Below are positions 1 to 27,452 of a DNA stretch of 27,486 bases, piece by piece. Under the pieces are notes generated by a model. It made no database searches. It was given only the letters and a program-made list of their open reading frames with translations, and was not told the origin of the DNA. The first letter of the stretch is position 1. The number at the start of each line of letters is the position of its first letter. The translations under genes and the position numbers were made by a program. Source of the stretch: Spirochaetia bacterium (GTDB taxonomy: Bacteria; Spirochaetota; Spirochaetia; Treponematales; Rectinemataceae); assembly GCA_021286925.1 (NCBI GenBank), contig JAJTBL010000001.1:1-27486 (forward strand), in the 5' to 3' direction.

Positions 1-1077
1 ATGGAAGGGCATTTTTCGGTGCCTTATTCGCAGGAATTCCAGCGGAGACTGCTCAAGCTCTGCTCGCCGGAAACGGCCAGAATCGACGAGCTGGTTTACG
101 CCCATGCCGCGCTTGCCGAATGGTATGCCGCCGCCGTGCATGGATTGCTGAATGCTTCTGGCCGGAAAGCCGATTCTATTGACGCGCTCTGCCTCCATGG
201 CCAGACGGTCTGGCATGCTCCTAATGCGGCAGTTTTCCCTGGACCCGACGGTACCATGATCGAGGCGCGCGGAACACTGCAGATTGGGTCAGCGCCGATA
301 CTTTCGGAACGGACAGGCATTCCGGTTGTATATGATTTCCGCTCGCGGGACATGGCAGCTGGCGGAGAAGGCGCTCCGCTGGCTCCCTTTGTGGATGCCC
401 TGCTGTTTGGAAGCGCCGGAAAAGGCTGTATTGTGCAGAATATCGGCGGTATCGGCAATGCAACCGTCATTCCTGCTGGAGCGGGAAACGAGGCTGTCTT
501 TGCCTTCGATACCGGTCCGGGCAACATGGTGATGGATGAACTGGCAAAGCTTTTTTCAGACGGAAGGCTTTCCTTTGATGAAGATGGGAAAATGGCTGGG
601 AAAGGAAGGGTTAGCCAGGCTTTGCTCGATCCTTTCCTGAAAGATCCCTACTTTTCGCGGAAACCTCCCAAAAGCACCGGGCGGGAAATCTACGGTGGGG
701 AGTTCGCGGCTGAGTTTGCGCGCCAAGGTCGAGCGCTGGGGCTTTCTGATTTCGATATCATGGCCTCGGCGGCGGCGTTTACCGCGGAAACCATCATCCG
801 AGCATATCGGGATTTTGTCTTTCCAATTGTGTCGATTGATGAGGTTGTGGTTGGCGGAGGAGGCGCCCTCAATCCGAGCCTCATGGCAATGATCAGGGAA
901 CGTCTGCCTGCCGACACCGCCCTGATGAGCACAGCCGATCGCGGCATTCCAGTTCTTGCACGCGAGGCGATTGCGTTTGCGGTTCTGGGGCATGAATCGC
1001 TGATGGGACATGCGTCGAATTTACCCGCGGTAACCGGAGCGGGACGCGAGGTGATTTTGGGTTGTTTGACACTTTAG
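1..1077 (+). CDS. anmK: Anhydro-N-acetylmuramic acid kinase, probably 5'-truncated by the window edge
   Basis: Family motifs HGQT, DFRSRDMAAGGEGAPLAP, NIGGIGN, FDTGPGN, PKSTGRE, GGG and REAIAFA are present. The usual N-terminal GxMSGTSxDG phosphate-binding loop is absent, so the true start is likely upstream of position 1. Confidence 0.93.
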   Translation: MEGHFSVPYSQEFQRRLLKLCSPETARIDELVYAHAALAEWYAAAVHGLLNASGRKADSIDALCLHGQTVWHAPNAAVFPGPDGTMIEARGTLQIGSAPILSERTGIPVVYDFRSRDMAAGGEGAPLAPFVDALLFGSAGKGCIVQNIGGIGNATVIPAGAGNEAVFAFDTGPGNMVMDELAKLFSDGRLSFDEDGKMAGKGRVSQALLDPFLKDPYFSRKPPKSTGREIYGGEFAAEFARQGRALGLSDFDIMASAAAFTAETIIRAYRDFVFPIVSIDEVVVGGGGALNPSLMAMIRERLPADTALMSTADRGIPVLAREAIAFAVLGHESLMGHASNLPAVTGAGREVILGCLTL

Positions 1078-1107
1078 CATTTTTTGAAGAATTTGCCCTT
1101 GCGTTTG

Positions 1108-1154
1108 TTGTGAAATGATATGACAATATCATTATAGCTTGTGAAATATTTTCA
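1108..1154. promoter_or_regulatory. Putative operator/promoter region of the ABC transporter operon
   Basis: Perfect inverted repeat AATGATAT-gaca-ATATCATT (1114-1133). Direct repeat TTGTGAAAT at 1108-1116 and 1139-1147. Second inverted repeat TGAAA-tat-TTTCA (1142-1154) abutting the SD. AT-rich intergenic context; candidate -10 TATCAT at 1127-1132. Confidence 0.65.
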
Positions 1155-1164
1155 GGAGGCAATC

Positions 1165-2676
1165 ATGAAAAAGATGTTTGTGATCGGGCTCGCCATTCTG
1201 ATGGTGGCAAGCATGGTGCCAGCGGCTTTTGCTGCTGGTGAAGAGAAAGTCCTGACCATCGGTGTCGATCAGGAAGCGGTTGGACTTGACCCACATATAG
1301 TCACGTCATTTTCATCTCACCGCCGTGTGGATCTTTTGTATAACAAACTGGTCCGCCACGATGAAAATCTGAAAATCGTGCCTGACCTTGCGGAATCCTG
1401 GGAAATTCCGGACAACCAGACCTACATTTTCAATCTGCGCAAGGGCGTGAAGTTCCATGATGGCACCGAAATGACGGCGAAAGACGTAGAATTTTCACTC
1501 AACCGGGTGCTGGATCCCAAAACGGCCTCGCCGGGCAGGTCCTATATCTCCACAATAAAAAGCATCGAAGTGCTTGGAACCTACAAGGTAAAAGTAGTGC
1601 TGTCCGCGCCGCTCGCTTCTTTCCTTGAAGGCCTTGCCAGCAACAACTGCGCAATTGTTTCCAAAGCCGCGGTCGAAAAATACGGAAATCTGCAGAAGGT
1701 GGCGGTTGGAACCGGCGCATTCATGCTCAAGGAATGGATTCCCGACAATTCCATGACCCTGGTCAAGAATCCTGAATACTTTGAAAAGGGACTGCCGTAT
1801 CTCGACAAGATCATATTCCGTGTCATTCCTGAGCAGGCTTCGCTCCTGGCGGGCATCAAAGCGGGCACGCTCGATATGGCTCAGATCAATGATGCAAGCA
1901 CGGTCCTCCTGGCAAAACGGGACACCAGCATTGCGGTCATGCAGAAACCGGGCATCAATGTGCGCACTTTCGGTTTCAATACGACCCGCAAGCCATTTGA
2001 TGACGTACGGGTTCGCCAGGCTCTTTCACTGGCTATCGACAGAAACGAAATTGTAACGGTGGCGGAATTCGGCATGGCCCAGCCAACCGGACCTATCCCC
2101 GCCGGCGCGACACAATGGGCTCTGCCGCTCAACAAGCTCCCCAACTTCACGCCTGATTACGCGAAAGCCAAGGCCCTGCTTGCCGAAGCCGGTTTCCCCA
2201 ACGGCTTTACCTTCAAGATTGTCACGGCGAATTCCTTTGAAGGCGGTTTGTCCGTCGCGCAGGTTGTCCAGAATCAGCTTAAAAAAATCGGCGTCAACGC
2301 GGAACTCGAGGTGGTTGAATGGGGCATGTATATTGACCGCTGGGTTAAGCGAGATTTTGATTCCATGGTGGAACTCCGCGGCGGCAGCGGCGAACCTGAC
2401 CGCTTCCTGTACCGGACTATCCATTCAACAGGCGGCGTCAATAACTTCCTTTTCAAGGATGCCGATGTAGACCGGCTTCTTGACAAGGGACGTGTCCTGA
2501 CCAGTTATGCAGAGCGTAAGCCAGTGTATGACGAGCTGCAGATTGTTCTTGCCCAAAAAGCGCCGATTATTTTCCTGTATTGCCCGTTTGAAACCCATGT
2601 CATGACAAAACAAGTAAAGGGCTTCAAGCAGGTAGGCTATGGCAGTCTGTACTATCTGATTCAGACACAGAAATAA
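1165..2676 (+). CDS. ABC transporter substrate-binding protein, family 5 (OppA/DppA-like)
   Basis: SD AGGAGG at 1154-1159, ATG 1165. Cleavable signal peptide (MKKMFVIGLAILMVASMVPAAFA, no lipobox). Motifs PDLAESW, FNLRKGVKFHDG, GTGAFML and FDDVRVRQALSLAIDR. Confidence 0.92.
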   Translation: MKKMFVIGLAILMVASMVPAAFAAGEEKVLTIGVDQEAVGLDPHIVTSFSSHRRVDLLYNKLVRHDENLKIVPDLAESWEIPDNQTYIFNLRKGVKFHDGTEMTAKDVEFSLNRVLDPKTASPGRSYISTIKSIEVLGTYKVKVVLSAPLASFLEGLASNNCAIVSKAAVEKYGNLQKVAVGTGAFMLKEWIPDNSMTLVKNPEYFEKGLPYLDKIIFRVIPEQASLLAGIKAGTLDMAQINDASTVLLAKRDTSIAVMQKPGINVRTFGFNTTRKPFDDVRVRQALSLAIDRNEIVTVAEFGMAQPTGPIPAGATQWALPLNKLPNFTPDYAKAKALLAEAGFPNGFTFKIVTANSFEGGLSVAQVVQNQLKKIGVNAELEVVEWGMYIDRWVKRDFDSMVELRGGSGEPDRFLYRTIHSTGGVNNFLFKDADVDRLLDKGRVLTSYAERKPVYDELQIVLAQKAPIIFLYCPFETHVMTKQVKGFKQVGYGSLYYLIQTQK

Positions 2677-2711
2677 GCATCTCTCGAGTGCTTTAAGGTT
2701 TGTGCTCCCAT

Positions 2712-2757
2712 GAATCGCCGGCCATGCTGGCTCTCCAGCAAAGCTGGCGATTCTTTC
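2712..2757 (+). terminator. Long stem-loop after the binding-protein gene (mRNA stabiliser or partial terminator)
   Basis: GAATCGCCGGC/GCTGGCGATTC 11-bp stem (one G-U pair) enclosing the inner hairpin TGCTGG-ctct-CCAGCA, followed by TTTC. Confidence 0.6.
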
Positions 2758-2780
2758 ATATCGTACGAGGATGAATACCG

Positions 2781-3743
2781 ATGGGTCGATATATTTTCCG
2801 CCGACTGATTTCACTCATACCGGTCTTGCTTGGTGTTTCAATAATTGTGTTTTTTCTTGTCCGCCTGATACCAGGCTCGGCTCTGCAGATGTACCTGGGA
2901 ACGCAGGTAGAAGCGACGCCGGAACAAATGGAAGAACTGCGCCGCATTTTCGGCGAAGACAGGCCGGTTCCGGTACTCTATGTTGAATGGCTTGGGCGGC
3001 TGCTCCAGGGAGATTTGGGGTATTCGCTGCGCACCGGCCGAGAGGTTCTGCCGGATATCCTGCAAAGACTGCCGCTCTCCATGGAGCTGACGTTTTACGC
3101 GCTCTTTCTTTCGCTGATCATCGGTATTCCGCTCGGTATTCTTTCAGCCCTGAAGCATGACCCGGCAACGGATGTTGCAATCCGGATAACAGGTTTGCTG
3201 GGGCTGTCATTGCCGCAATTCTGGCTGGCTTCGCTGATGGTTATCGCGTTTTCCGGATTCCGCGGGTGGATTCCGATGGGAAATTATATCGGATTTCTGA
3301 AATCACCCCTTGAAAACCTCAGAATGCTCTTCCTGCCTTCGCTTGCGATTGGCATCGGGCTGGCGGCAGTCATCATGCGCTACACGCGCAACAGCATGCT
3401 GGAAGTCATGCAGATGGATTATATCCGGACAGCTCAGGCAAAGGGCCTGGCCAAGCGTGTTGTCATTGTGCGGCACGCGCTCAGAAATGCGATACTTCCG
3501 GTCATCACTGTCGCTGGCTTCAATACGGGCTACCTGCTTGGCGGCGCCATTGTCATCGAAGAAGTCTTTGCACTGCCCGGCATGGGCAGGCTTGCGCTGT
3601 ACGCGATCTATCAGCGGGATTATTCGCTGATTCAGGGAATCGTGCTGATCATTGCGACAATGTTTGTCCTGGTCAACTTGATTACCGACCTCATCTATGC
3701 CGCGGTGGACCCGCGGATTCGGCTTGATACAAAGGAGGGCTGA
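2781..3743 (+). CDS. ABC transporter permease (OppB/DppB-like)
   Basis: GDLGYS, LPLSMEL and the EAA loop DYIRTAQAKGL..HALRNA; multiple hydrophobic segments; SD GAGGA upstream. Confidence 0.93.
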   Translation: MGRYIFRRLISLIPVLLGVSIIVFFLVRLIPGSALQMYLGTQVEATPEQMEELRRIFGEDRPVPVLYVEWLGRLLQGDLGYSLRTGREVLPDILQRLPLSMELTFYALFLSLIIGIPLGILSALKHDPATDVAIRITGLLGLSLPQFWLASLMVIAFSGFRGWIPMGNYIGFLKSPLENLRMLFLPSLAIGIGLAAVIMRYTRNSMLEVMQMDYIRTAQAKGLAKRVVIVRHALRNAILPVITVAGFNTGYLLGGAIVIEEVFALPGMGRLALYAIYQRDYSLIQGIVLIIATMFVLVNLITDLIYAAVDPRIRLDTKEG

Positions 3744-3746
3744 GAT

Positions 3747-4577
3747 ATGTCGAGGCTTCTGAAAAACCCGATTGCCCTCGTCGGTCTGATCATCATTTTG
3801 CTGTATGTCCTCATCACGGCAGTTTCCCAATTCTGGCTGCCTTTCGATCCTTTGCAGATGGATGTGGCGCATATCATGGAGCCGCCTTCATTCAAGACTG
3901 GGCATCTTTTCGGCACTGATGAATTCGGGCGCGATATTCTGACCAGGATTATGAAAGGTGCCGGCGTATCCTTGCTGATCGCAATTTCAGCAACCCTGAT
4001 TGGCGCGACGATCGGTACATTCATGGGAGTGTGGGCAGGATTTCTCGGCGGGGCATGGGATCACTGGATCATGCGGCTTGCTGATGTCCTGTTTTCCTTT
4101 CCCTCGTTACTGCTTGCCATCTTTGTTATGGCTATTCTTGGCGAGAAAACCTACAACGTCATTATCGCGATATCCATTGTGTATATTCCGCAGTTTGCGC
4201 GGGTGAGCCGAGGCGCGGTGCTGGCGATAAAAAATAACGAATTTGTCAGGGCAGCTTTTTCCAGCGGAGCTGACCGGCGTTTTGTCCTTTCACGCCACCT
4301 CCTGCCGAACATCATGATGCCGGTTATTGTCCAGAGTTCGCTCTCCCTCAGTGTCGCCATCCTTTTGGAATCCGCCCTGAGCTTTCTCGGCCTCGGTGTC
4401 CAGCCGCCGAATCCATCATGGGGGAATATGCTGAGCGGCGCCCGCAAAGTGATGCTGCTGGCGCCCTGGACTGCCCTCTATCCCGGCCTTGCCATCATGG
4501 GGTTGGTGCTGGGATTCAATCTTCTGGGCGATGGCTTGCGCGACATTCTCGATCCGCGTCTGCGAAATATAAAGTAG
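3747..4577 (+). CDS. ABC transporter permease (OppC/DppC-like)
   Basis: HLFGTDEFGRDILTR, EFVRAAFSSGA..RHLLPN, ESALSFLGLGVQPPNPSWG and GDGLRDILDPR; SD GGAGG upstream. Confidence 0.93.
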   Translation: MSRLLKNPIALVGLIIILLYVLITAVSQFWLPFDPLQMDVAHIMEPPSFKTGHLFGTDEFGRDILTRIMKGAGVSLLIAISATLIGATIGTFMGVWAGFLGGAWDHWIMRLADVLFSFPSLLLAIFVMAILGEKTYNVIIAISIVYIPQFARVSRGAVLAIKNNEFVRAAFSSGADRRFVLSRHLLPNIMMPVIVQSSLSLSVAILLESALSFLGLGVQPPNPSWGNMLSGARKVMLLAPWTALYPGLAIMGLVLGFNLLGDGLRDILDPRLRNIK

Positions 4578-4586
4578 GAGGAAGCG

Positions 4587-5603
4587 ATGTTCGACAAGAA
4601 AGAAACGGTGCTCAGCGTTCGCAACCTCGGGACCCGCTTCATGACTTCGTCAGGAACCGTAAAGGCTGTGGATGGCGTTTCGTTCGATGTTCATAAAGGC
4701 GAAATTTTCGGCATTGTCGGCGAATCGGGTTCAGGAAAAAGTGTCACCAACCTTTCCATTCTCCGCTTGATTCCTTCGCCGCCGGGCAAAATTGTCGAAG
4801 GACAGATCATTCTGAAAGGAAAGAATCTGCTTGAAGCGAATGAAAACGAATTGCAGATGATCCGGGGCGGCAATGTTTCGATGATTTTTCAAGATCCCAT
4901 GACCTCCCTCAACCCGCTGCTGAAAGTTTCGGTGCAGATAGCGGAAGTTCTGGAACTTCACCATGGGCTTTCGCGCAAAGAAGCTGAAAAGAAAGTTGTG
5001 GAGCTTCTGAAGGCGGTCGGTATACCGGACGCTGAACGAAGGGCGCAGGAATATCCGCACCAGTTTTCAGGCGGCATGCGGCAGCGGGTGATGATCGCCA
5101 TGGCTATCGGCTGTAATCCTGATGTGCTGATCGCTGACGAGCCGACGACAGCCCTCGATGTCACTATTCAAGCACAGATTCTGGATTTGATCCGGCGTCT
5201 TTCGGATTCCCGCACCATGTCGGTGATTCTCATAACCCATGATCTGGGGGTGGTAGCGGGTATGTGCGATACGGTGGCTGTCATGTATGCAGGTCGAATT
5301 GTGGAGCAGTCCGCGGTTGATCCGCTTTTCCGTGAACCGCGGCATCCGTATACGCAGGGGTTGCTGGCATCGGTGCCGCGGCTCGATTCCGCATGGAGCG
5401 AACGGCTGTATTCAATACCGGGTGCGCCGCCCAATCTGGCCGATCTGCCCGCAGGATGCGCGTTTGCGCCGCGCTGTGCCTATGCCTTGCCGGTGTGCCG
5501 GAATGCATATCCGCCGCTGACAGAAATGGATGACGGCCAGGGCGGGAAACGCTTGGTCCGCTGTTGGCTCCACACCAGCGAAAACTCCGGAGAACAGCAA
5601 TGA
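4587..5603 (+). CDS. ABC transporter ATP-binding protein (OppD/DppD-like)
   Basis: Walker A GESGSGKS, signature FSGGMRQR, Walker B LIADEPTTALD, HPYT and the C-terminal Cys cluster; SD AGGAGG. Confidence 0.94.
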   Translation: MFDKKETVLSVRNLGTRFMTSSGTVKAVDGVSFDVHKGEIFGIVGESGSGKSVTNLSILRLIPSPPGKIVEGQIILKGKNLLEANENELQMIRGGNVSMIFQDPMTSLNPLLKVSVQIAEVLELHHGLSRKEAEKKVVELLKAVGIPDAERRAQEYPHQFSGGMRQRVMIAMAIGCNPDVLIADEPTTALDVTIQAQILDLIRRLSDSRTMSVILITHDLGVVAGMCDTVAVMYAGRIVEQSAVDPLFREPRHPYTQGLLASVPRLDSAWSERLYSIPGAPPNLADLPAGCAFAPRCAYALPVCRNAYPPLTEMDDGQGGKRLVRCWLHTSENSGEQQ

Positions 5604-6640
5604 ATTCAGCAAACACAACACCGCAGCCATTGCTCGAGGTGAAAAATCTCAAGGTTTATTTCCCTATTGAAAAAGGAATTATTGTCAGGAAAAGGATTGG
5701 GTGGCTCAAGGCGGTGGATGATGTCAGCTTTGCGGTGAACGAGGGCGAGGCTGTCGGCCTTGTCGGGGAATCCGGCTGCGGTAAATCGACAACCGCCCTG
5801 GCCATAGCTCATCTGCAGAAAATTACTGATGGGCACATCCTGTTTGAAGGCCGGGATTTGAGCGCCATGCCGGCGGGGAAGCTCTATGCTGAGCGCCGTA
5901 ACTTCCAGATGGTGTTTCAGGATCCCTATTCTTCGCTTGATCCCCGAATGACCGCGTTTGATACCATTGCGGAACCGCTGAGAATCCAGGTGCGCCGGGG
6001 AACCATGGCGCTGAGCGAAGCGGAAATTCGTGACAAAGTGCTGGATTTGATGGACAAGGCGGGGCTTTCCCGGACATTTTCCAACCGCTATCCGCATGAA
6101 TTTTCAGGGGGCCAGCGGCAGCGTATCGGGATTGCCCGGGCTCTGGCGCTCTCGCCGAAGCTCGTTATCGCGGATGAGCCGGTCAGTGCGCTCGATGTTT
6201 CCATACAGTCGCAAATCCTCAATCTGATGAAGGACTTGCAGAATGAGCTAGGATTAACCTATCTCTTTATAGCGCATAATCTTGCAGTGGTTGAGTACTT
6301 CTGCCGCCGGATTGTGGTAATGTATCTCGGCACGATTGCGGAAATTGCCCCTTCTGAAATGCTGTATAGCGAGCCTCTGCATCCCTATACGCAGGCGCTT
6401 TTGTCCGCCGTTCCCATTCCCGATCCGCCCCGTGAACGCCAGCGGTCCCGCATCCTGCTGAAAGGCGACGTTCCATCGCCAAGCGCGGAGCGGCAAGGCT
6501 GTCCATTCAAGGAGCGCTGTGCTTCCGCAATGGCGATCTGCGCAACCCAGCGTCCTGATCTGCTCGAGGCAAGGCCTGGGCATCAGGTTGCCTGCCATTT
6601 ATATGGGCAGAAAGGAAATACCGATGGCAATCATCATTGA
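5600..6640 (+). CDS. ABC transporter ATP-binding protein (OppF/DppF-like)
   Basis: ATG 5600 overlaps the upstream TGA (ATGA). GESGCGKS, FSGGQRQR, IADEPVSALD, HPYT and the C-terminal Cys cluster. Confidence 0.93.
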   Translation: MNSANTTPQPLLEVKNLKVYFPIEKGIIVRKRIGWLKAVDDVSFAVNEGEAVGLVGESGCGKSTTALAIAHLQKITDGHILFEGRDLSAMPAGKLYAERRNFQMVFQDPYSSLDPRMTAFDTIAEPLRIQVRRGTMALSEAEIRDKVLDLMDKAGLSRTFSNRYPHEFSGGQRQRIGIARALALSPKLVIADEPVSALDVSIQSQILNLMKDLQNELGLTYLFIAHNLAVVEYFCRRIVVMYLGTIAEIAPSEMLYSEPLHPYTQALLSAVPIPDPPRERQRSRILLKGDVPSPSAERQGCPFKERCASAMAICATQRPDLLEARPGHQVACHLYGQKGNTDGNHH

Positions 6641-7103
6641 AGACGCTTTTCCTGGCGATATCCTCCGCTGTGCTCAAATCGCCTGCGACAGCGAGATTGG
6701 CAGGCGGTACGGTTTTGTTCAGGAAAGCCTCGCGGCGCGGATGCAGGAGCGGCTCATTGGCGGCGATGTGATCCTGGTTGCCCGCGAAACGGAACAGGCT
6801 GCACCGGATATCGCCGGTTTTGCCTGGATTGACCTGAAAGGCGGATTCGGCCAGTCGCCCTATCTCAAACTGATTGCCGCAAATCCCGCCAGGCGAAGCA
6901 GCGGCGTCGGTTCTCGTTTGCTTGCGGCCTTTGAAGCCCGGACGCATGGACGCGGTCGGGCCTGGCTGCTGCTCTGCTCCGATTTTAACACGCAGGCGAT
7001 TCGATTTTATGAAAACCATGGCTATGCGGTTGTCGGGGCTTTGCCTGATTTTGCCAAAGACGGGATTACCGAAATGGTTTTATACAAGCTTCAGGAACAT
7101 TGA
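6624..7103 (+). CDS. GNAT-family N-acetyltransferase
   Basis: SD AAGGA, ATG 6624 (17-nt overlap with the upstream gene), 159 aa. Acetyl-CoA motif A RRSSGVGSRLL and motif B NTQAIRFYENHGY. Confidence 0.85.
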   Translation: MAIIIEDAFPGDILRCAQIACDSEIGRRYGFVQESLAARMQERLIGGDVILVARETEQAAPDIAGFAWIDLKGGFGQSPYLKLIAANPARRSSGVGSRLLAAFEARTHGRGRAWLLLCSDFNTQAIRFYENHGYAVVGALPDFAKDGITEMVLYKLQEH

Positions 7104-7105
7104 AC

Positions 7106-8212
7106 ATGGAACGCATAGACCGGATCACCCTCGATGCCATAGACCGGCAGCTCTTTGCCGGCGCGGTGATCCGACTGGAACAGGATGGCGAAACTCGCTA
7201 TGAGAAAGCCTTTGGATATTCGCTGAAGACTGCTGAGCGACAGGTTCCGATGACTGTTGAAACGCTGTTTGACCTGGCTTCGCTGACCAAACTCTTTACC
7301 GCGACTGCCGTGCTGACACTTGTCAGCAAGGGAAAGCTCGAACTTGATGTGCCGCTTGCTGATGCGGCTGGGGGCAAATTTGCCGCCCAGTTTGCGATGA
7401 ATGTTTCGAGCCAGCTTCCAAGGGTTTCCGCGATGCTGAAAACGACGACTGTCCGGGATTTGCTGACGCACGCCAGCGGCATTCATTACTGGTATCCATT
7501 CTACGCGGATGGCGTGGGGAGCAGTTTTGCTTCAATTCTGGAAACCGTTCTGACCCGTTTTCCTCAACAGAAAACGACAATATATTCAGATATCAACTTC
7601 ATGCTGGCGGGCATGCTGGCTGAGCAGGCGGGCGGGATGGCATTGAATAAAGCAATGGCCACGCTTGTGTGCAGGCCGCTTGCGTTGGAGTGCTGCGCTT
7701 ATCGCCCTACACCCGCTCAGAATACTGCCTTCGCGGCGACGGAGTTCGGCAATCGGATTGAAATGAAAATGGTGGCGGAACTTGGGCTCCGGTTTTCGGG
7801 CTGGCGGCCGCTGGATCAGCCTATCATGGGGGAGGCGGATGACGGCAATTGTCGCTATTTCTTTGGCGGCACCGCTGGCCATGCCGGCCTTTTTGCGACC
7901 GCGAGGGACCTTTGCAGGCTGGGAACTTTGTATGCCGGCAACGCTGTCCCGGGTTTTCTCCCGGAAGCACTTCTGAAGGAAGCAGTCACTGATTATGGCA
8001 ATGGGCGCGGGCTTGGTTTCCAGTTTGGCCCCCGCTATCCGGATGGCTGCGGACACACAGGTTTTACCGGTACATTCCTGTATGTTAACCCCGGCAGAAG
8101 GCTTTCCTTGAGCATTCTTACCAATCGCCTGCATGTTCCGGAGCCGCAGAACATCGATCCGTTCCGCGAGGCGATTACAGAGACGGCGCTGGAAATGGCC
8201 GGAAAGCAATAA
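7106..8212 (+). CDS. Serine hydrolase, beta-lactamase/PBP-like fold (AmiE/YbbE-like candidate), no signal peptide
   Basis: SxxK in FDLASLTK, LLTHASG, YSD at the YxN position, GHAGLF and HTGFTG. SD CAGGA precedes ATG 7106; TTG 7100 is an alternative start. Confidence 0.85.
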   Translation: MERIDRITLDAIDRQLFAGAVIRLEQDGETRYEKAFGYSLKTAERQVPMTVETLFDLASLTKLFTATAVLTLVSKGKLELDVPLADAAGGKFAAQFAMNVSSQLPRVSAMLKTTTVRDLLTHASGIHYWYPFYADGVGSSFASILETVLTRFPQQKTTIYSDINFMLAGMLAEQAGGMALNKAMATLVCRPLALECCAYRPTPAQNTAFAATEFGNRIEMKMVAELGLRFSGWRPLDQPIMGEADDGNCRYFFGGTAGHAGLFATARDLCRLGTLYAGNAVPGFLPEALLKEAVTDYGNGRGLGFQFGPRYPDGCGHTGFTGTFLYVNPGRRLSLSILTNRLHVPEPQNIDPFREAITETALEMAGKQ

Positions 8213-8325: not shown

Positions 8326-8362
8326 TTGACCGCTCAATAATTATCCCCTAAAATGCTATAAT
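8326..8362 (+). promoter_or_regulatory. Tandem sigma70-type promoters for the TAXI-TRAP operon
   Basis: TTGACC(8326-8331)-N17-TAAAAT(8349-8354), plus an extended -10 TGcTATAAT (8354-8362), in an AT-rich intergenic stretch. Confidence 0.7.
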
Positions 8363-8412: not shown

Positions 8413-9387
8413 ATGAAGAAATTATTCGTTCTGCTGATGGCACTTGCCGTCGTGTTCGGCGCAGGAGCACAGAACAAGGCTGGCTGGCCGGAGCAGCTGA
8501 AATTTATGGCAGGACCTCCTGGAGGCAACTGGTTCGCGCTTGGAACGGCGCTTTCTGAAATGTGGAGCAAGGCTGTATTACAGACGACTTCTTCGACAGG
8601 CGGCGGAGTTGCCAATATTCTGAACACCGATGCTAAAAAAGGTGATTTTGGATTCTCCGTCACTTCGCTGGTCGGTGCGGCAATCGCGGGCGAAGAGGAT
8701 TTTACCGGAAAAGCGGTAAAAAACACCGTGGTCATGGCAAACCTCTATACACAGTTTACTTATTTTATTGTGAGAAAAGATTTTGCTGATAAAAATGGTA
8801 TCAAGACTTTTGACGATATGATCAATGGCAATGTTCCTGTCCGTTTTGCAACCTTGAAGCCAGGAACAGCGTCCGAGTTTGTCATCAAAGCGCTTTTCAA
8901 AAAAGGCTATGGCACCGATTACGACAAGCTCAAGAAAAAAGGCTGGACCTTCGAGTTTACTTCGTATGAAAACGGCACGGACCTGATCGCGGACAATCAC
9001 CTCGATTGTTTTGCCTTCTCGGTAGGACGCGTTGCAAGCGTTGTCATGAACATTGAAAACTCCACCCCGATCTATATTCTTCCGGTTGGGCAAAAAGCTT
9101 TGGATGCTTTGGCTCAAGCCTATGGAACGACAACATTTACCGTTGAGCCAGGTATCTACAAGAGTGTTAAAACTCCTATCAAAACCGTCGGCGATTACAC
9201 ATGTATCGTCATTCGCAAAGATCTGCCGGATTCATTGGTGTATGAGCTGAACAAAGCGCTGTGGGCTAACAAGTCCAGCCTGGCCATGGCAGTTCAGGAT
9301 ATCAATGAGCTTAACCCCAAAGAAGCGCTGCCCGAAGGGGTGCCTGCGCACCCTGCTTCGGTTCAGTTCTGGAAGACTGCAAAATAG
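8413..9387 (+). CDS. TAXI-family TRAP transporter solute receptor
   Basis: SD AAGGAG. Signal peptide; GPPGGNWFALG, STGGGVANI, LYTQF and HPASVQFW correspond to TAXI consensus blocks. Lies directly upstream of a fused TRAP permease. Confidence 0.88.
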   Translation: MKKLFVLLMALAVVFGAGAQNKAGWPEQLKFMAGPPGGNWFALGTALSEMWSKAVLQTTSSTGGGVANILNTDAKKGDFGFSVTSLVGAAIAGEEDFTGKAVKNTVVMANLYTQFTYFIVRKDFADKNGIKTFDDMINGNVPVRFATLKPGTASEFVIKALFKKGYGTDYDKLKKKGWTFEFTSYENGTDLIADNHLDCFAFSVGRVASVVMNIENSTPIYILPVGQKALDALAQAYGTTTFTVEPGIYKSVKTPIKTVGDYTCIVIRKDLPDSLVYELNKALWANKSSLAMAVQDINELNPKEALPEGVPAHPASVQFWKTAK

Positions 9388-9541: not shown

Positions 9542-11572
9542 ATGCGCAAGGTTGAAGGTTTCGCGAAAAAAAGCATTTATGTGTATGTCGTTTTAATTGG
9601 ATTGTTTCATATCTATACTTCCGTTTTTGGCAATTTTGAAGCTTATCTGCAGCGGGCATTGCATCTTACGATGATTCTACCGCTTGTTTTCCTTCTGTGG
9701 CCGATAAGCAAGAAAGCTCCGTCCGATAGGATTCCCTGGTATGATATGGTTCTCGCGGGTCTTTCTTTTGCTCCCGGGGTGTACATCGTCATCAATTACT
9801 GGGCGATTACGACAAGAATTGTACAAATAGACCCGCTGACGTCGACGCAGATAGTATTGGGGGCTTTGCTTATTGTGCTCCTGCTTGAAGCGGCTCGGAG
9901 AATTGTCGGCTTGCCGATCATGTTTATCGCGCTGGTTTCCATCCTGTACATGTTGTTCGGCAAATACATTCCCGGTCTTTTTCAGGGCATTTCATTTACG
10001 CCGGCAGAGATTATCGAACAGGCTTTTTTAACGGATGAAGGTATTTTTTCTTCTCCGCTGGGGGTATCCGCCACCTATGTCATGGTTTTCCTGATTTTTG
10101 GCGGGTTTTTGGAAAAAAGCGGTGTGGGGGAATTTTTCATGCAATTTGCCCAGGCGTTTACCGGTACTCAACCGGGCGGGCCTGCGCTGATTGCCGTAAC
10201 TTCTTCATGTCTTTTCGGTTCCATCTCCGGTTCAGCTGTCGCGAATGTGTATGGAACAGGCACCTTTACCATTCCGCTCATGAAGAAAATTGGCTATCCA
10301 AGTTATTTTGCGGGGGCTGTCGAAGCGGTAGCCTCAACTGGCGGCCAGATAATGCCGCCTATTATGGGAGCCGGCGCATTCCTTATGGCTTCATTCCTTG
10401 GATTGCCTTATAAAACCATTATGATAGCAGCAATCCTGCCGGCACTCATGTACTACGGCGCCGTCTTTTTAATGGTACGGCTGGGAGCGCACAAGAATCA
10501 TCTGAAAGGTCTCAGTCAGGAAGAATTGCCTTCAAAGCGGGCGGTAGCTAAAAAATCTTTCATGGTAATTCCGCTTGTCGGGATTGTTTATTTCCTGATG
10601 ACAGGCGCGACGCCCATGAAAGCCGCCATCATCGGCATTATCCTGGCCTGGCTCATATCGTTTTTCAATCCCAAAGCGGAACTGGATCAGGGAAAGAAGA
10701 AACTCTCATATCTAGCGGGAGCTGTTGTATCAGCGGTTTTTGTCGCGCTGGTCTTTTTCCCGGGGATTTCAGATTCGATCTTTAAAACGAAATTGAGCAT
10801 AGTTCCTGTAGTAATTCTTTTCATTGCAGTAACATACTTGAATGGCGGCATGAATATACAGGATGTCATTGACGCAATTTATGAAGGCGCCAAGGGGATT
10901 CCGTTAATCGCGATTGCCTGCGCGACAGCAGGCATTGTCCTTGGTGCGGTTGCTCTGACAGGAATCGGCGGCAAACTTGTCGGCTTTGTACTTTCATTTG
11001 CCAAAGACGCGCCCCTGCTCGGCCTCGCGCTGGTCATGCTTATTTCAATATTCCTTGGAATGGGGCTTCCGACCACCGGTGCGTATATCCTTGGTTCCGC
11101 TTTGGGCGCACCGATCCTGGTCAAGATGGGTTTTTCTCCCCTTGCGTCCCATATGTTTGTATTCTATTTTGCGGTCATATCGAATATTACTCCTCCGGTT
11201 GCGCTTGCGGCCTTTGCGGCCAGTTCTATATCAGGAGCTTCGCCCAACAAGATAGGCTTCCAAGCGATGCGGCTCGGATTCCTCGCTTTTATAGTCCCCT
11301 TTGCCTTCTGCTATGATCCCGGCTTGTTGCTGCAGGGGACTCTTGCGGTAAACCTCTTGGCTATTGTGTCAGGCATCATTGCCTTGTTTGCATTCGGATA
11401 TTTCTGGATGGGGTATATAACCAGACCGATTTCCTGGCCGATACGAATAGTGCTGGCTTTTGCCGGTGTCATCGCCTTGTTCCCAAATAACCTTTATGTC
11501 CTTGGAGCAGGTATTCTGGTTGGAGGATCATTCCTCTATTCGAAACTGATATTGGAAAAGAGACCGGCGTAA
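9542..11572 (+). CDS. TRAP transporter fused permease (4TM/12TM, DctQ-DctM-like)
   Basis: Highly hydrophobic 676 aa protein. GGPALIAVTSSCLFGSISGSAVANV, GTFTIPLM, ASTGGQIMPPIMGAGAF, GMGLPTTGAY and HMFVFYFAVISNITPPVALAAF. Confidence 0.92.
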   Translation: MRKVEGFAKKSIYVYVVLIGLFHIYTSVFGNFEAYLQRALHLTMILPLVFLLWPISKKAPSDRIPWYDMVLAGLSFAPGVYIVINYWAITTRIVQIDPLTSTQIVLGALLIVLLLEAARRIVGLPIMFIALVSILYMLFGKYIPGLFQGISFTPAEIIEQAFLTDEGIFSSPLGVSATYVMVFLIFGGFLEKSGVGEFFMQFAQAFTGTQPGGPALIAVTSSCLFGSISGSAVANVYGTGTFTIPLMKKIGYPSYFAGAVEAVASTGGQIMPPIMGAGAFLMASFLGLPYKTIMIAAILPALMYYGAVFLMVRLGAHKNHLKGLSQEELPSKRAVAKKSFMVIPLVGIVYFLMTGATPMKAAIIGIILAWLISFFNPKAELDQGKKKLSYLAGAVVSAVFVALVFFPGISDSIFKTKLSIVPVVILFIAVTYLNGGMNIQDVIDAIYEGAKGIPLIAIACATAGIVLGAVALTGIGGKLVGFVLSFAKDAPLLGLALVMLISIFLGMGLPTTGAYILGSALGAPILVKMGFSPLASHMFVFYFAVISNITPPVALAAFAASSISGASPNKIGFQAMRLGFLAFIVPFAFCYDPGLLLQGTLAVNLLAIVSGIIALFAFGYFWMGYITRPISWPIRIVLAFAGVIALFPNNLYVLGAGILVGGSFLYSKLILEKRPA

Positions 11573-25130: not shown

Positions 25131-26455
25131 TCACAGCCCCGCGGATAATTCCGGATTTACATTCAGATAGTCACGGAGAGCTTTGCTCAGCGCCTCATTT
25201 GCGGAATCCGAAAAGGTCATCCCTGCGCTTTGGTCAAGCCAGGGAACCAGCACCTTTTCTTTCAGCGGCTTCCAGACAAGCGGCATGGCTGCGGGTGCCG
25301 GGATGCGCTCCGCCTTTGGAAACCGGCCGCGCAATTCAGGATAATATTCGGGTATCACCTTGGCGGTCACCGGCGTGTATGCGGAAAATCCCCCTGCGAT
25401 GCCAAATTCGCTTTCATTTAAGCGAAGCGAGCGCGCCTTTTCCAGCAGAAGCCGCTGGGTGTCCGCGGTAAAAAACCATGCCAGGAATTGACTTGCCGCG
25501 GTTTTCGCGCGGGCGCCGTTCGGAATGCCCGCGTAGAGGACATCTTCATACACGGCGAGCTTGTTTTCGATTTCGACATAATGAAATTCGAACTGGTTGC
25601 GCGTCTGCGAGGGCAGTGTGAAAAATTCCGAGCTTTTCAGGGCTGCAAAAAGCGTCCTGCGAGGGCTGAAGCGTAGGTAAAGGCAAAAGCGTTTTCTTTT
25701 TCGGCAGACCCATTGACTGCTGTGCTGAAATCCTGCAGTGCCGCGATCGCGACGGGGAGCTTGTTTTGGTCCCACTGCACCGGCAGGCTGTCTTTGGCTG
25801 GTTTGGCTGGCGAGGAAAAGTCGGCGCCCATCCACTGGACCCACTGGAACAAGAAATCGCCGCCGGTTTTGCGCGGCACAAAGCCCATCGCGGTAAATCC
25901 CTTCCCGGAATCCTTGTTGAATTTTTGCGCAATAGTTCGAATTTCTTCCATTGTTATTGTCGAACTGGACATGGCGGCCAGGCTGGCTGGGTTGTCAGTC
26001 TCAAGCGCGCCTTTTTTATTCACCAGCATGAGAAGATTGAAGCTGACAGGGAGGAGCCGGGTTTTCCCCTTTGCCTTGCCTGCTTCCAGAAGAGCAGGGT
26101 AAAAATCGTTCCGCGAAAAGGCGAGCCTGTCAAAAAGGAAGTCCAGGGTCTGAAATCGAGCCATGGTCGCAGGCTGGCGAAGGTTTTTCCCGATGACCAG
26201 GGAAGGCGGCGTCTTTGCCTGGGCCAGCGCGGTGCCCAGGTTGTCACGGTAGTGCAATTCGACTAAATACTGCGTCTGTGAAGCATTGAAGAGTTCAGCG
26301 GCCAGCTGGATTTCCGGGCTGTCGGTCCAGACAACGGCAATGTCGCTTTCAAAAAGGGAGCAGGAAACGAGCAAAGCGATAAAAAGCGCGGTGCTTGCCA
26401 GCGGGATGGAAAATCTGCCAAGATGGGATGAGCCGGTCTTTTGTTTCAGCGCCAT
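25131..26455 (-). pseudogene. Solute-binding-like lipoprotein gene split by a single frameshift (or an assembly indel)
   Basis: Frame A runs from ATG 26455 (lipobox LLVSC) to TGA at 25637-25639, 272 aa. Protein-like sequence continues in the -1 frame (FAALKSSEFFTLP...FGIAGGFSA...) to the stop at 25131. The span is 1325 nt; adding one base gives 441 aa. Confidence 0.7.
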
Positions 26456-26461
26456 GAGATG

Positions 26462-26490
26462 ACGATAGCTTTTCCTGATTACAATGGCAA
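26462..26490 (-). promoter_or_regulatory. Promoter of the lipoprotein gene, predicted leaderless
   Basis: Minus strand TTGCCA-N17-TATCGT-N6-ATG; no SD. Confidence 0.6.
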
Positions 26491-26507
26491 GAGGATGGCA
26501 TACGGGG

Positions 26508-27452
26508 ATGAAATCACGATTCAACCGACATTCGGAGCGCCTCATCGAGCGGTTCGGCGAAAAAGTGTGGCGCCTCGGACTCGACGCCGGCTTTTCCTGT
26601 CCGCACCGTCTGCAGGGGAGGGGCAAGGGAGGCTGTTCGTTCTGTCCGCCGGATGCCGCCATCGCCGCGTATCAGCATGACGGCTCGCGGATTGTGCTGA
26701 ATCTCGATGAGCAGATTGCCCGGGCTGTGGCGTTTACGCGGTACCGCTACAAGGCGCGGCTGTTTTTCCTGTACTTTCAGGCATACACGAATACCTATCT
26801 TCCCGCGGACCAGCTTCGTGCCCTGTATGACCACGCGATTTCGGTGATGGAAGCCATCGCGCCGGGAACCCTGCGGGGGCTGGTTATTTCGACTCGTCCT
26901 GACTGCATCGATAGGGAGAAGGTCGAATTGATTGCGTCCTACCAGCGGCAGGGGCTAGAGGTCTGGCTGGAACTGGGCTTGCAGAGCGCGCACGACCAGA
27001 CACTGAAGCGGATCAATCGAGGCCATTCAGTGGCTGATTTTGTTGCAGCATCAAACCTTGCGTATGATGCGGGTATCAGGCGGGCTGTACATGTCATTCT
27101 CGGCCTGCCCGGCGAAAATCGGCTCATGATGCTGGAAACCATGCGGTTTCTGCAGAAAAACGGCCTTGAGGGCATAAAATTCCACGACCTGCGGCTTGCC
27201 AAAGGCTCGGCGCTTGAGCGCTCCTACCGCGCCGGTGAGTTTGCGCCGCTCCATCCGGATCGCCTCCCGCCGCTCCTTGCCGACTGTCTTGAGCTTCTGC
27301 CCGCTTCGGTGGAAGTTTTGCGGCTTTCTTCTGATTTTTCCCGCGATTCGGTACTGGACTTGTTCCCGCATCCGGATAAAAATAATTTGTATATGGCTGT
27401 TGAAGCGGAGCTTGCACGGCGGAATTCCTTTCAGGGGAGGCTGGTCGAATGA
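26508..27452 (+). CDS. TIGR01212 (YhcC-like) radical SAM protein
   Basis: DAGFSCPHR...GGCSFC split Cys triad, YFQAYTNTY, STRPDC, ELGLQSAH and HVILGLPGE. Start placed at ATG 26508; 26484 is possible. Confidence 0.88.
   Translation: MKSRFNRHSERLIERFGEKVWRLGLDAGFSCPHRLQGRGKGGCSFCPPDAAIAAYQHDGSRIVLNLDEQIARAVAFTRYRYKARLFFLYFQAYTNTYLPADQLRALYDHAISVMEAIAPGTLRGLVISTRPDCIDREKVELIASYQRQGLEVWLELGLQSAHDQTLKRINRGHSVADFVAASNLAYDAGIRRAVHVILGLPGENRLMMLETMRFLQKNGLEGIKFHDLRLAKGSALERSYRAGEFAPLHPDRLPPLLADCLELLPASVEVLRLSSDFSRDSVLDLFPHPDKNNLYMAVEAELARRNSFQGRLVE

Follow-up and report, generated by a model that had tools for sequence, protein, structure and literature searches.

An anmK-linked ABC importer cluster with a cytoplasmic PBP4B/AmiE-like hydrolase in Rectinema-like spirochaetes: a candidate route for scavenging muropeptides

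The window analysed here is a stretch of 27,486 nucleotides (nt) from a spirochaete of the family Rectinemataceae (GenBank contig JAJTBL010000001.1), and it constitutes the complete contig C206 of a metagenome-assembled genome (MAG, designated G000) of 2.09 Mb that is 88% complete. Its first 8212 bases hold eight genes, all on the forward strand and assigned to families by profile searches. These are anmK, for anhydro-N-acetylmuramic acid kinase, followed by the genes of a family-5 ATP-binding cassette (ABC) importer, a GNAT acyl-CoA N-acyltransferase and a serine hydrolase, in the order and of the families given by the initial annotation of this DNA. The cluster is considered here as a candidate system for the uptake and breakdown of cell-wall fragments that contain N-acetylmuramic acid (MurNAc).

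The window opens within anmK (1-1077, stop codon TAG at 1075-1077; PF03702, E 7.5e-85), which is cut at its 5' end by the start of the contig and, in spite of this truncation, scores 396.8 bits with the curated AnmK equivalog model NF007148, above the cut-off of 387. The missing 5' end of about 22 codons was found on another contig of the same genome (G000:C262:11-73, reverse strand), where the upstream neighbour of anmK is a divergent carboxylesterase gene; the idea that murQ or a MurR regulator gene lies straight upstream of the window was therefore discarded. Behind anmK, a spacer of 87 nt holds an 18-nt palindrome (1115-1132; 7-nt arms around a 4-nt centre), a possible operator, and leads to the gene for a family-5 substrate-binding protein of 503 amino acids (1165-2676; PF00496, SBP_bac_5, E 1.3e-97), whose start was corrected from GTG 1141 to the ATG at 1165 behind AGGAGG. 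The only other genuine spacer, 104 nt long and containing an intercistronic stem-loop recognised by folding (2712-2753, forward strand), separates the binding-protein gene from permB (2781-3743), which encodes a DppB/NikB/GsiC-like permease with PF00528 (BPD_transp_1) and PF19300 that stays below every NCBIfam equivalog cut-off.

From permB onwards the genes are tightly packed. The DppC/GsiD-like permease gene permC (3747-4577; PF00528 and PF12911, OppC_N) follows after 3 nt and the OppD/DppD-like ATPase gene atpD (4587-5603) after a further 9 nt, while the OppF/DppF-like atpF (5600-6640, start corrected to 5600) shares a 4-nt ATGA overlap with atpD; both ATPases combine PF00005 (ABC_tran) with PF08352 (oligo_HPY). 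The 5' end of the GNAT gene (6624-7103, start corrected to 6624; 159 amino acids; PF13508 and PF00583) overlaps the 3' end of atpF by 17 nt, and the hydrolase gene (7106-8212; 368 amino acids; PF00144, E 2.7e-48) begins 2 nt past the GNAT stop codon at a corrected ATG, the alternative TTG at 7100 being one that would overlap. No gap in this series exceeds 9 nt. The chaining proposed earlier for the last four genes thus holds and extends to six, from permB to the hydrolase gene. With an SBP_bac_5 binding protein, two BPD_transp_1 permeases and two oligo_HPY-tailed ATPases, the transporter is a family-5 ABC importer.

The strongest evidence here that these genes constitute one functional unit is that the set is kept through rearrangement and across phyla. 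When 80 genome loci with relatives of the binding protein were searched for the other proteins of the window together with MurQ and MurR, the identities of the binding proteins proved to be bimodal, with 20 loci at 56-98% and the remaining 60 at no more than 39%. AnmK is present at 14 of the 20 loci in the upper group, and in 19 of these 20 the contig carries AnmK, MurQ, MurR, the GNAT or the hydrolase, the exception being a 6-kb contig. Linkage was seen at only one of the 60 loci in the lower group, an Anaerolineae locus (L027) with AnmK, GNAT, binding protein and permeases and no hydrolase. The upper group comprises Spirochaetota (Rectinema, Sphaerochaeta and others), a Bacillota MAG, an Armatimonadota MAG, 'Candidatus Fervidifonticultor' and other MAGs, so that the cluster is spread over Spirochaetota, Bacillota and Armatimonadota and probably also Chloroflexota. 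The neighbourhood survey suggested with the initial annotation thus bears it out, in that orthologues of the binding protein are linked specifically to anmK, murQ, murR, GNAT and hydrolase genes across phyla. In spirochaetes, murR and murQ are divergent from anmK, which is followed by the genes for the binding protein, two permeases, two ATPases, the GNAT and the hydrolase; in other phyla the order runs GNAT, binding protein, two permeases, hydrolase, murQ and anmK. The genes that flank the cluster vary between loci. Since the non-spirochaete clusters (L025, L020-L024) encode a binding protein and two permeases and no ATPase, they must borrow ATPases encoded elsewhere. In the Bacillota version (L020, 14728-16266) no GNAT was detected, and the place behind the hydrolase gene is taken by genes for a PIG-L family deacetylase and a GntR/UTRA regulator.

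Within the family itself, a sample of 60 genomes held the hydrolase in 30, an orthologue of the binding protein in 27, true AnmK in 31 and MurQ in 36, and presence and absence track the same genera. AnmK, the binding protein and the hydrolase are encoded on one contig and one strand in 17 of these genomes; the recurrence of this colinear cluster on single contigs, together with its occurrence in other phyla, places the arrangement far beyond chance. The distribution is patchy, as no hydrolase match at E 1e-40 was obtained in an even sample of 150 other genomes of the phylum, which indicates rarity in that sample rather than absence. The closest homologues of the binding protein belong to Rectinema subterraneum SURF-ANA1 (94%), a 'Treponemataceae' MAG (98%) and other Rectinema-like MAGs, and across the Rectinema-type relatives this protein is 94-98% identical. 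R. subterraneum SURF-ANA1 is a cultured carrier, with the cluster complete at locus L008. Among the Rectinema-like genomes, conservation declines along the cluster: between the window and loci L002, L003 and L008 identities are 94-95% for the binding protein, 94-98% for PermB, 85-94% for AtpD, 80-86% for AnmK, 68-79% for the GNAT and 57-71% for the hydrolase. The binding protein is conserved to a degree unusual for its class, and the hydrolase end of the cluster may have evolved faster or been exchanged. In another genome of the family (G173:C3:2006083-2008447), whose AnmK gene is on a different contig, a hydrolase homologue (52% identity) immediately precedes a distant (38%) family-5 binding protein; the pair could represent a second, diverged version of the module.

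The best NCBIfam match of the hydrolase is PBP4B (98.7 bits; runner-up 48.7), and the protein aligns over the full length with E. coli YfeW/PBP4B at 28% identity (E 9e-29), the two sharing the SxxK motif, an unusual second motif YSD, GHAGLF and GHTGxTGT. The residues S59, K62, Y160, S161, D162, H317 and G319, which make up the motifs S59xxK62, Y160-S-D162 and H317-T-G319, are invariant in 48 homologues, those of other phyla included, so that the enzyme is predicted to be catalytically competent. Its AlphaFold2 model (mean confidence score, pLDDT, 93.8) adopts the class-C/S12 beta-lactamase fold. A Foldseek search of the PDB returned generic S12/class-C folds only (TM-score 0.64-0.73), including the R61 DD-peptidase, an alkaline D-peptidase and a D-stereospecific hydrolase; as far as the model goes, there is no close solved relative and the substrate cannot be read from the structure. 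There is no sign of export, given that a signal peptide is missing, residues 2-13 are modelled with confidence as a helix belonging to the fold and the alignment with YfeW begins at YfeW residue 40. The absence of a signal peptide, together with fusions to a CoA-dependent GNAT, argues for a cytoplasmic enzyme, as had been proposed at the outset.

By its PBP4B score and its likeness to YfeW, the hydrolase would belong to the PBP4B/AmiE subfamily, AmiE being placed there by description. Like these enzymes it is encoded with genes of MurNAc catabolism, namely anmK here and murQ and murR in relatives. PBP4B (yfeW) lies in the E. coli operon murQ-murP-yfeW (PMC5061867), a layout that we confirmed, and the MurR regulon of B. 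subtilis includes the PF00144 protein AmiE (YbbE; PMC10653849, Table 1), encoded in the operon murQ-murR-murP-amiE-nagZ-namZ and characterised as an exo-MurNAc-L-alanine amidase that acts outside the cell, on muropeptides and not on the intact wall (PMC8054146, PMC10653849). Membership in this subfamily would make the cluster hydrolase a putative MurNAc-L-alanine amidase and a counterpart of AmiE inside the cell.

The most tightly bound partner of the hydrolase is the GNAT, to which the initial annotation assigned no role. Its gene is translationally coupled to that of the hydrolase, and the two proteins are fused, with the GNAT at the N-terminus, in five protein clusters (P0103, P0106, P0109, P0121 and P0122); no other fusion partner was found among the longer proteins. 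It has the RxxGxG CoA-binding loop and invariant E104, N122 and Y129, and its AlphaFold2 model (pLDDT 93.2) has GNAT structures as top matches. Sequence and fold searches yielded generic GNATs only and no named subfamily; E. coli YpeA, a GNAT encoded near yfeW and amiA, was considered as a relative and rejected, because the similarity is of the generic GNAT kind (E 7e-4). The nearest structures are acetyltransferases of N-terminal or amino-acid alpha-amines (Ard1, RimI, phosphinothricin and YncA types) and of polyamines, with no sugar acetyltransferases among them, which could be taken as a weak hint at the substrate. In the Sphaerochaeta-type clusters a gene of the enolase superfamily is inserted between atpF and the GNAT gene, directly upstream of the latter (L011 15424-16494; L016 15425-16495; L017 8825-9907), and it stands beside the GNAT gene in L011, L016, L017, L019 and L026. 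Of the named families, the N-acetyl-D-glutamate racemase DgcA matches it best, at 141-154 bits far under the cut-off of 400, and the models for MenC and L-Ala-D/L-Glu epimerase score lower still and also under their cut-offs. The similarity suggests that in these genomes the GNAT may ready an N-acyl D-amino acid or peptide for racemisation. No such gene was found in the genome of the window (88% complete), and most clusters lack it.

The binding protein of the transporter has a Sec signal peptide and no lipobox cysteine, and genes like lptC, lptA and lptB for lipopolysaccharide (LPS) transport are present on the same contig at 21107-23177, which is consistent with a diderm envelope with LPS or a related glycolipid and hence with a periplasmic location. 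The protein is about equidistant from the GsiB, DppA, OppA and NikA models and from the structures of HbpA, GsiB and DppA; the best named families, GsiB, DppA and OppA, are all far under their cut-offs, as in the case of DppA_dipep with 171 bits against 1005. With E. coli DppA it shares 29% identity, and D408, R355 and Y357 of mature DppA, which we take to anchor the dipeptide at its free N- and C-termini, align with G407, A355 and S357. Since these end-holding residues are replaced, the protein is predicted not to be a canonical peptide or dipeptide binder. An invariant arginine stands two residues ahead of G407. The replaced anchors would fit a ligand whose N-terminus is blocked, as in a MurNAc-peptide, or one that is not a peptide; the relatives in the PDB include binders of agropinic acid, agrocinopine and autoinducer-2 (AI-2). 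From the gene context we infer that the ligand is an intact MurNAc-peptide.

The remainder of the genome frames this proposal. MurQ is encoded on contig C395 and a MurR-like regulator on C323, and searches of the 88%-complete genome did not find AmpG (TIGR00901), an Amidase_2/AmpD protein (PF01510), a phosphotransferase system (PTS) EIIC or MurP, GH3/NagZ, Mpl or LdcA. The independence of AmpG and AmpD supposed in the initial annotation is thus matched by the gene content, the more so as five other genomes with the cluster, two of them whole chromosomes, gave no Amidase_2 (0/5) and no AmpG (0/5); GH3 is present in all five. In the family sample, Amidase_2 occurs in 5 of the 60 genomes, mostly of genera that are free of the cluster, and only one of the five has both. 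With neither AmpG nor a MurP-type PTS found, AnmK has no known supply route except the transporter of the cluster; with no AmpD-type amidase found, the hydrolase is the only known candidate for a cytoplasmic amidase. That Mpl and LdcA were not found either points to breakdown of the peptide moiety in preference to its re-use, as in catabolic scavenging.

Taken together, we give a probability of roughly 0.58 to the reading that the cluster provides an ABC route for (anhydro)MurNAc-peptides in which a cytoplasmic AmiE-like amidase feeds AnmK and MurQ, in place of AmpG and AmpD. The periplasmic Dpp/Gsi-like binding protein would capture a wall fragment containing MurNAc, most likely 1,6-anhydro-MurNAc (or MurNAc) with its stem peptide, and the two permeases and two ATPases would bring it into the cell. 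There the PBP4B/AmiE-type hydrolase would cut the amide bond between D-lactyl and L-Ala, AnmK would turn the freed anhydro-MurNAc into MurNAc 6-phosphate, and MurQ, encoded elsewhere in this genome and beside anmK in relatives, would cleave the ether to give N-acetylglucosamine 6-phosphate and D-lactate. The GNAT would probably N-acetylate an amine on the freed peptide or on a D-amino acid that stems from it, thereby committing the peptide part to catabolism. The muropeptide-salvage reading of the initial annotation is in this respect sustained by the linkage, by the cytoplasmic PBP4B/AmiE-type hydrolase and by the failure to find AmpG, Amidase_2 and PTS EIIC; the novelty claimed for it was overstated, as the comparison at the end makes clear.

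A number of observations weigh against this assignment. The hydrolase reaches 98.7 bits where the PBP4B equivalog cut-off is 385, its likeness to AmiE is one of description and locus while the sequence comparison is with YfeW only, and the activity reported for PBP4B is that of a weak DD-carboxypeptidase (PMC5061867); the fold would suit a D-peptidase just as well. The anmK gene is not a constant neighbour: it lies 15 kb away in one genome, and three genera have a cyclophilin gene and another ABC system between anmK and the binding-protein gene; that system (L089 2249-5781; L090 2015-5294) is unrelated, with a PF04392 binding protein, a BPD_transp_2 permease and an ATPase. In the lineage of the window murQ and murR are not linked to the cluster, and the enolase-superfamily gene, where present, points at amino-acid rather than sugar chemistry. 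The gene absences rest on a MAG that is 88% complete, and if they hold, a disaccharide ligand would be a dead end, since GH3/NagZ was not found.

Some of this evidence could be read as the mark of an importer of stem peptides or of peptides with D-amino acids, in which the hydrolase works in the cytoplasm as a D-stereospecific peptidase or DD-carboxypeptidase and the GNAT acetylates the D-amino acid set free, to be racemised where the enolase gene is present; AnmK would be merely co-located, the two having a part in cell-wall salvage in common. The S12 fold does include D-peptidases, such as those among the Foldseek matches, the nearest folds of the GNAT act on alpha-amines of amino acids or peptide N-termini, PBP4B has been described as a DD-carboxypeptidase (PMC5061867), and the DgcA-like gene beside the GNAT gene at the loci named above recalls the D-glutamate route through DgcN and DgcA, which is published (cited in PMC10845958). 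However, the binding protein lacks the anchors by which DppA holds free peptide ends, AnmK would be left without a route for its substrate where AmpG and a MurP-type PTS were not found, and the enolase gene is far under the DgcA cut-off and missing from this genome and from most clusters; we regard this as an unlikely explanation, albeit a credible one.

The loss of both peptide-end anchors would also suit an importer that supplies AnmK and MurQ with free anhydro-MurNAc, MurNAc or another amino sugar devoid of peptide, the hydrolase and GNAT then serving some other co-regulated substrate. One such task could be the re-N-acetylation of de-N-acetylated muramic acid or glucosamine residues, which GlmA of Clostridium acetobutylicum reportedly performs. 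That some family-5 binding proteins take non-peptide ligands, as the agropinic acid, agrocinopine and AI-2 binders show, and that the Anaerolineae locus dispenses with the hydrolase, speak for such an importer. But the hydrolase accompanies binding-protein orthologues of at least 56% identity wherever the contigs are long enough, removal of the peptides outside the cell would leave an AmiE-type enzyme in the cytoplasm with nothing to act on, and the structures nearest to the GNAT are not those of sugar acetyltransferases, so that we hold this to be somewhat less probable than stem-peptide import. That a generic oligopeptide or nickel importer has come to lie beside anmK by accident, next to unrelated GNAT and esterase-like genes, is very improbable: all transporter parts do score well on the Opp, Dpp, Nik and Gsi models, yet none reaches an equivalog cut-off, and the linkage to AnmK, MurQ, GNAT and hydrolase is kept across phyla despite shuffling and is absent in 59 of 60 paralogues.

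Alongside import of intact MurNAc-peptides as the preferred reading, a more speculative idea concerns the GNAT and hydrolase as a pair. They could constitute a bifunctional cytoplasmic unit that frees MurNAc from imported foreign muropeptides and also N-acetylates the remaining stem peptide or D-amino acids from it, which would mark them for catabolism instead of re-ligation into the cell's own wall, with conversion from D to L where the enolase-type racemase is present. We put this forward with little confidence. If true, it would amount to an undescribed branch of peptidoglycan metabolism common to necromass-feeding anaerobes of several phyla.

How the cluster is expressed can be approached from its two spacers and from public sequence libraries. 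The palindrome between anmK and the binding-protein gene survives in the nearest relatives (L002, L007) and in degenerate form in L003, and more distant relatives with a short spacer of about 30 nt (L005, L010) lack it; a promoter scan of this spacer found no sigma-70-like promoter. The region between the binding-protein gene and permB (2674-2782) folds with a minimum free energy of -41.7 kcal/mol (z -4.0; 0 of 200 shuffles as stable), and a hairpin of different sequence occupies the same position in L002, L003, L008 and L010. An intercistronic stem-loop of this kind is the usual device by which ABC operons raise the level of the binding-protein message.

Near-identical DNA is present in wastewater, sludge, bioreactor and biofilm metagenomes of 11 studies, and the locus is also found in the RNA libraries of three studies. 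The RNA-library contigs of one study join anmK, the binding protein and both permeases (1-3941), and those of a sister run reach atpD (1-5421); in two other RNA studies the binding-protein gene has the deepest contigs. In the RNA sets X15 and X16 the hydrolase gene is almost uncovered from 7200 to 8000, and contig depth drops past permC/atpD; depths in such contigs cannot rank genes, the contigs cannot prove a single transcript, and expression of the hydrolase cannot be inferred from them. The uneven depth along the window makes carry-over of DNA unlikely. An adapter-flanked RNA piece beginning at 1169 was considered as a transcript start and set aside, as it is not a mapped start. Co-regulation of the transporter with anmK, as the initial annotation would require, is thus favoured by contigs that bridge the two, but the palindrome-bearing spacer lies between them and other genes are inserted there in some genera.

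Beyond the cluster, a TAXI-type tripartite ATP-independent periplasmic (TRAP) transporter follows directly at the 3' side, with a solute-binding subunit (8413-9387) and a fused permease (9542-11572). The pair has its own promoter-like site, TTGACC-17-TAAAAT (8326-8354), adjoins the cluster in L002 too and is well covered in the RNA-library contigs. Towards the end of the window, an open reading frame of 341 amino acids on the reverse strand (25637-26662) has no Pfam match and overlaps reading frames on both strands, and it may not be a real gene.

Recycling of peptidoglycan is known mainly from E. coli, with AmpG, NagZ and AmpD, and from B. subtilis, with secreted NagZ, AmiE and NamZ and the MurP PTS. 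The one ABC-based exception described is YejBEF-YepA, the muropeptide importer of Agrobacterium tumefaciens (Gilmore and Cava, 2022; PMC9790009), which is reported to be exclusive to Alphaproteobacteria and works with AmpD and NagZ. An AmpG-independent ABC importer and a beta-lactamase-fold amidase, AmiE (PMC8054146, PMC10653849), are therefore both on record, and the initial annotation went too far in the novelty it claimed when naming the cluster its strongest candidate for an undescribed system. Both YejBEF-YepA and the cluster are family-5 ABC systems that would substitute for AmpG in a diderm without it, import by the cluster being proposed from its genes. However, the Yej ATPase is the fused YejF whereas the cluster has two separate ATPase genes, its binding protein is Dpp/Gsi-like (YepA being compared by description), and the scores of 144.9 bits for YejB (cut-off 445), 96 for YejE (439) and 319 for YejF (834) place its proteins outside the Yej families; its best matches, the Gsi, Dpp, Nik and Opp models, put it on another branch of family 5. 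While YejBEF-YepA relies on AmpD, the transporter described here comes with a hydrolase, a GNAT and AnmK encoded alongside, and AmpD was not found in the genome.

The remaining comparisons have the same character of likeness in role and difference in parts. AmiE, PBP4B/YfeW and the cluster hydrolase are all PF00144 serine hydrolases of MurNAc catabolic clusters, but AmiE and PBP4B are exported and partnered with the MurP PTS, whereas the cluster enzyme has no signal peptide, can be fused to a GNAT, is partnered with an ABC system and shares only 28% identity with YfeW, its NCBIfam score being under the cut-off. The E. coli pathway from AmpG through NagZ and AmpD to AnmK and MurQ has the same end, AnmK (by equivalog score) and MurQ being present in this genome, while AmpG, an AmpD-type amidase, NagZ/GH3, LdcA and Mpl were not found in it. 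E. coli MppA-OppBCDF is, like the cluster with its proposed ligand, a family-5 ABC system dedicated to a wall fragment; MppA, however, takes only freed peptides (PMC10622912), and the binding protein of the cluster scores lower against MppA structures than against the GsiB, HbpA and DppA types and has no DppA-type anchor for a free amino end. The pairing of an acetyltransferase with a racemase-like gene of the enolase superfamily in Sphaerochaeta-type clusters resembles DgcN-DgcA, or a GNAT with an N-acylamino-acid racemase, but the racemase-like gene is under the DgcA cut-off and absent from the window and its genome. DgcN, to our knowledge, is not a GNAT.

Full-text literature searches returned no paper on a family-5 ABC importer linked to anmK or murQ together with a GNAT and a cytoplasmic PF00144 hydrolase. 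The cluster thus combines variants of known parts, a role like that of YejBEF-YepA, an AmiE-like enzyme and AnmK with MurQ, in a combination that was not in the literature found. It suggests what the little-understood PBP4B subfamily may do and raises the question of the substrate of the GNAT. Since its carriers include Rectinema, which has been linked to the recycling of necromass in anoxic habitats (PMC6052044), and the sequence of the window recurs in metagenomes and metatranscriptomes of sludge and wastewater, the cluster could become a molecular handle on the turnover of dead bacterial cell walls in anaerobic communities. Set beside the layouts of E. coli and B. subtilis and the alphaproteobacterial exception, it suggests a third layout, in which ABC import is combined with a cytoplasmic AmiE-like amidase and a dedicated acetyltransferase.

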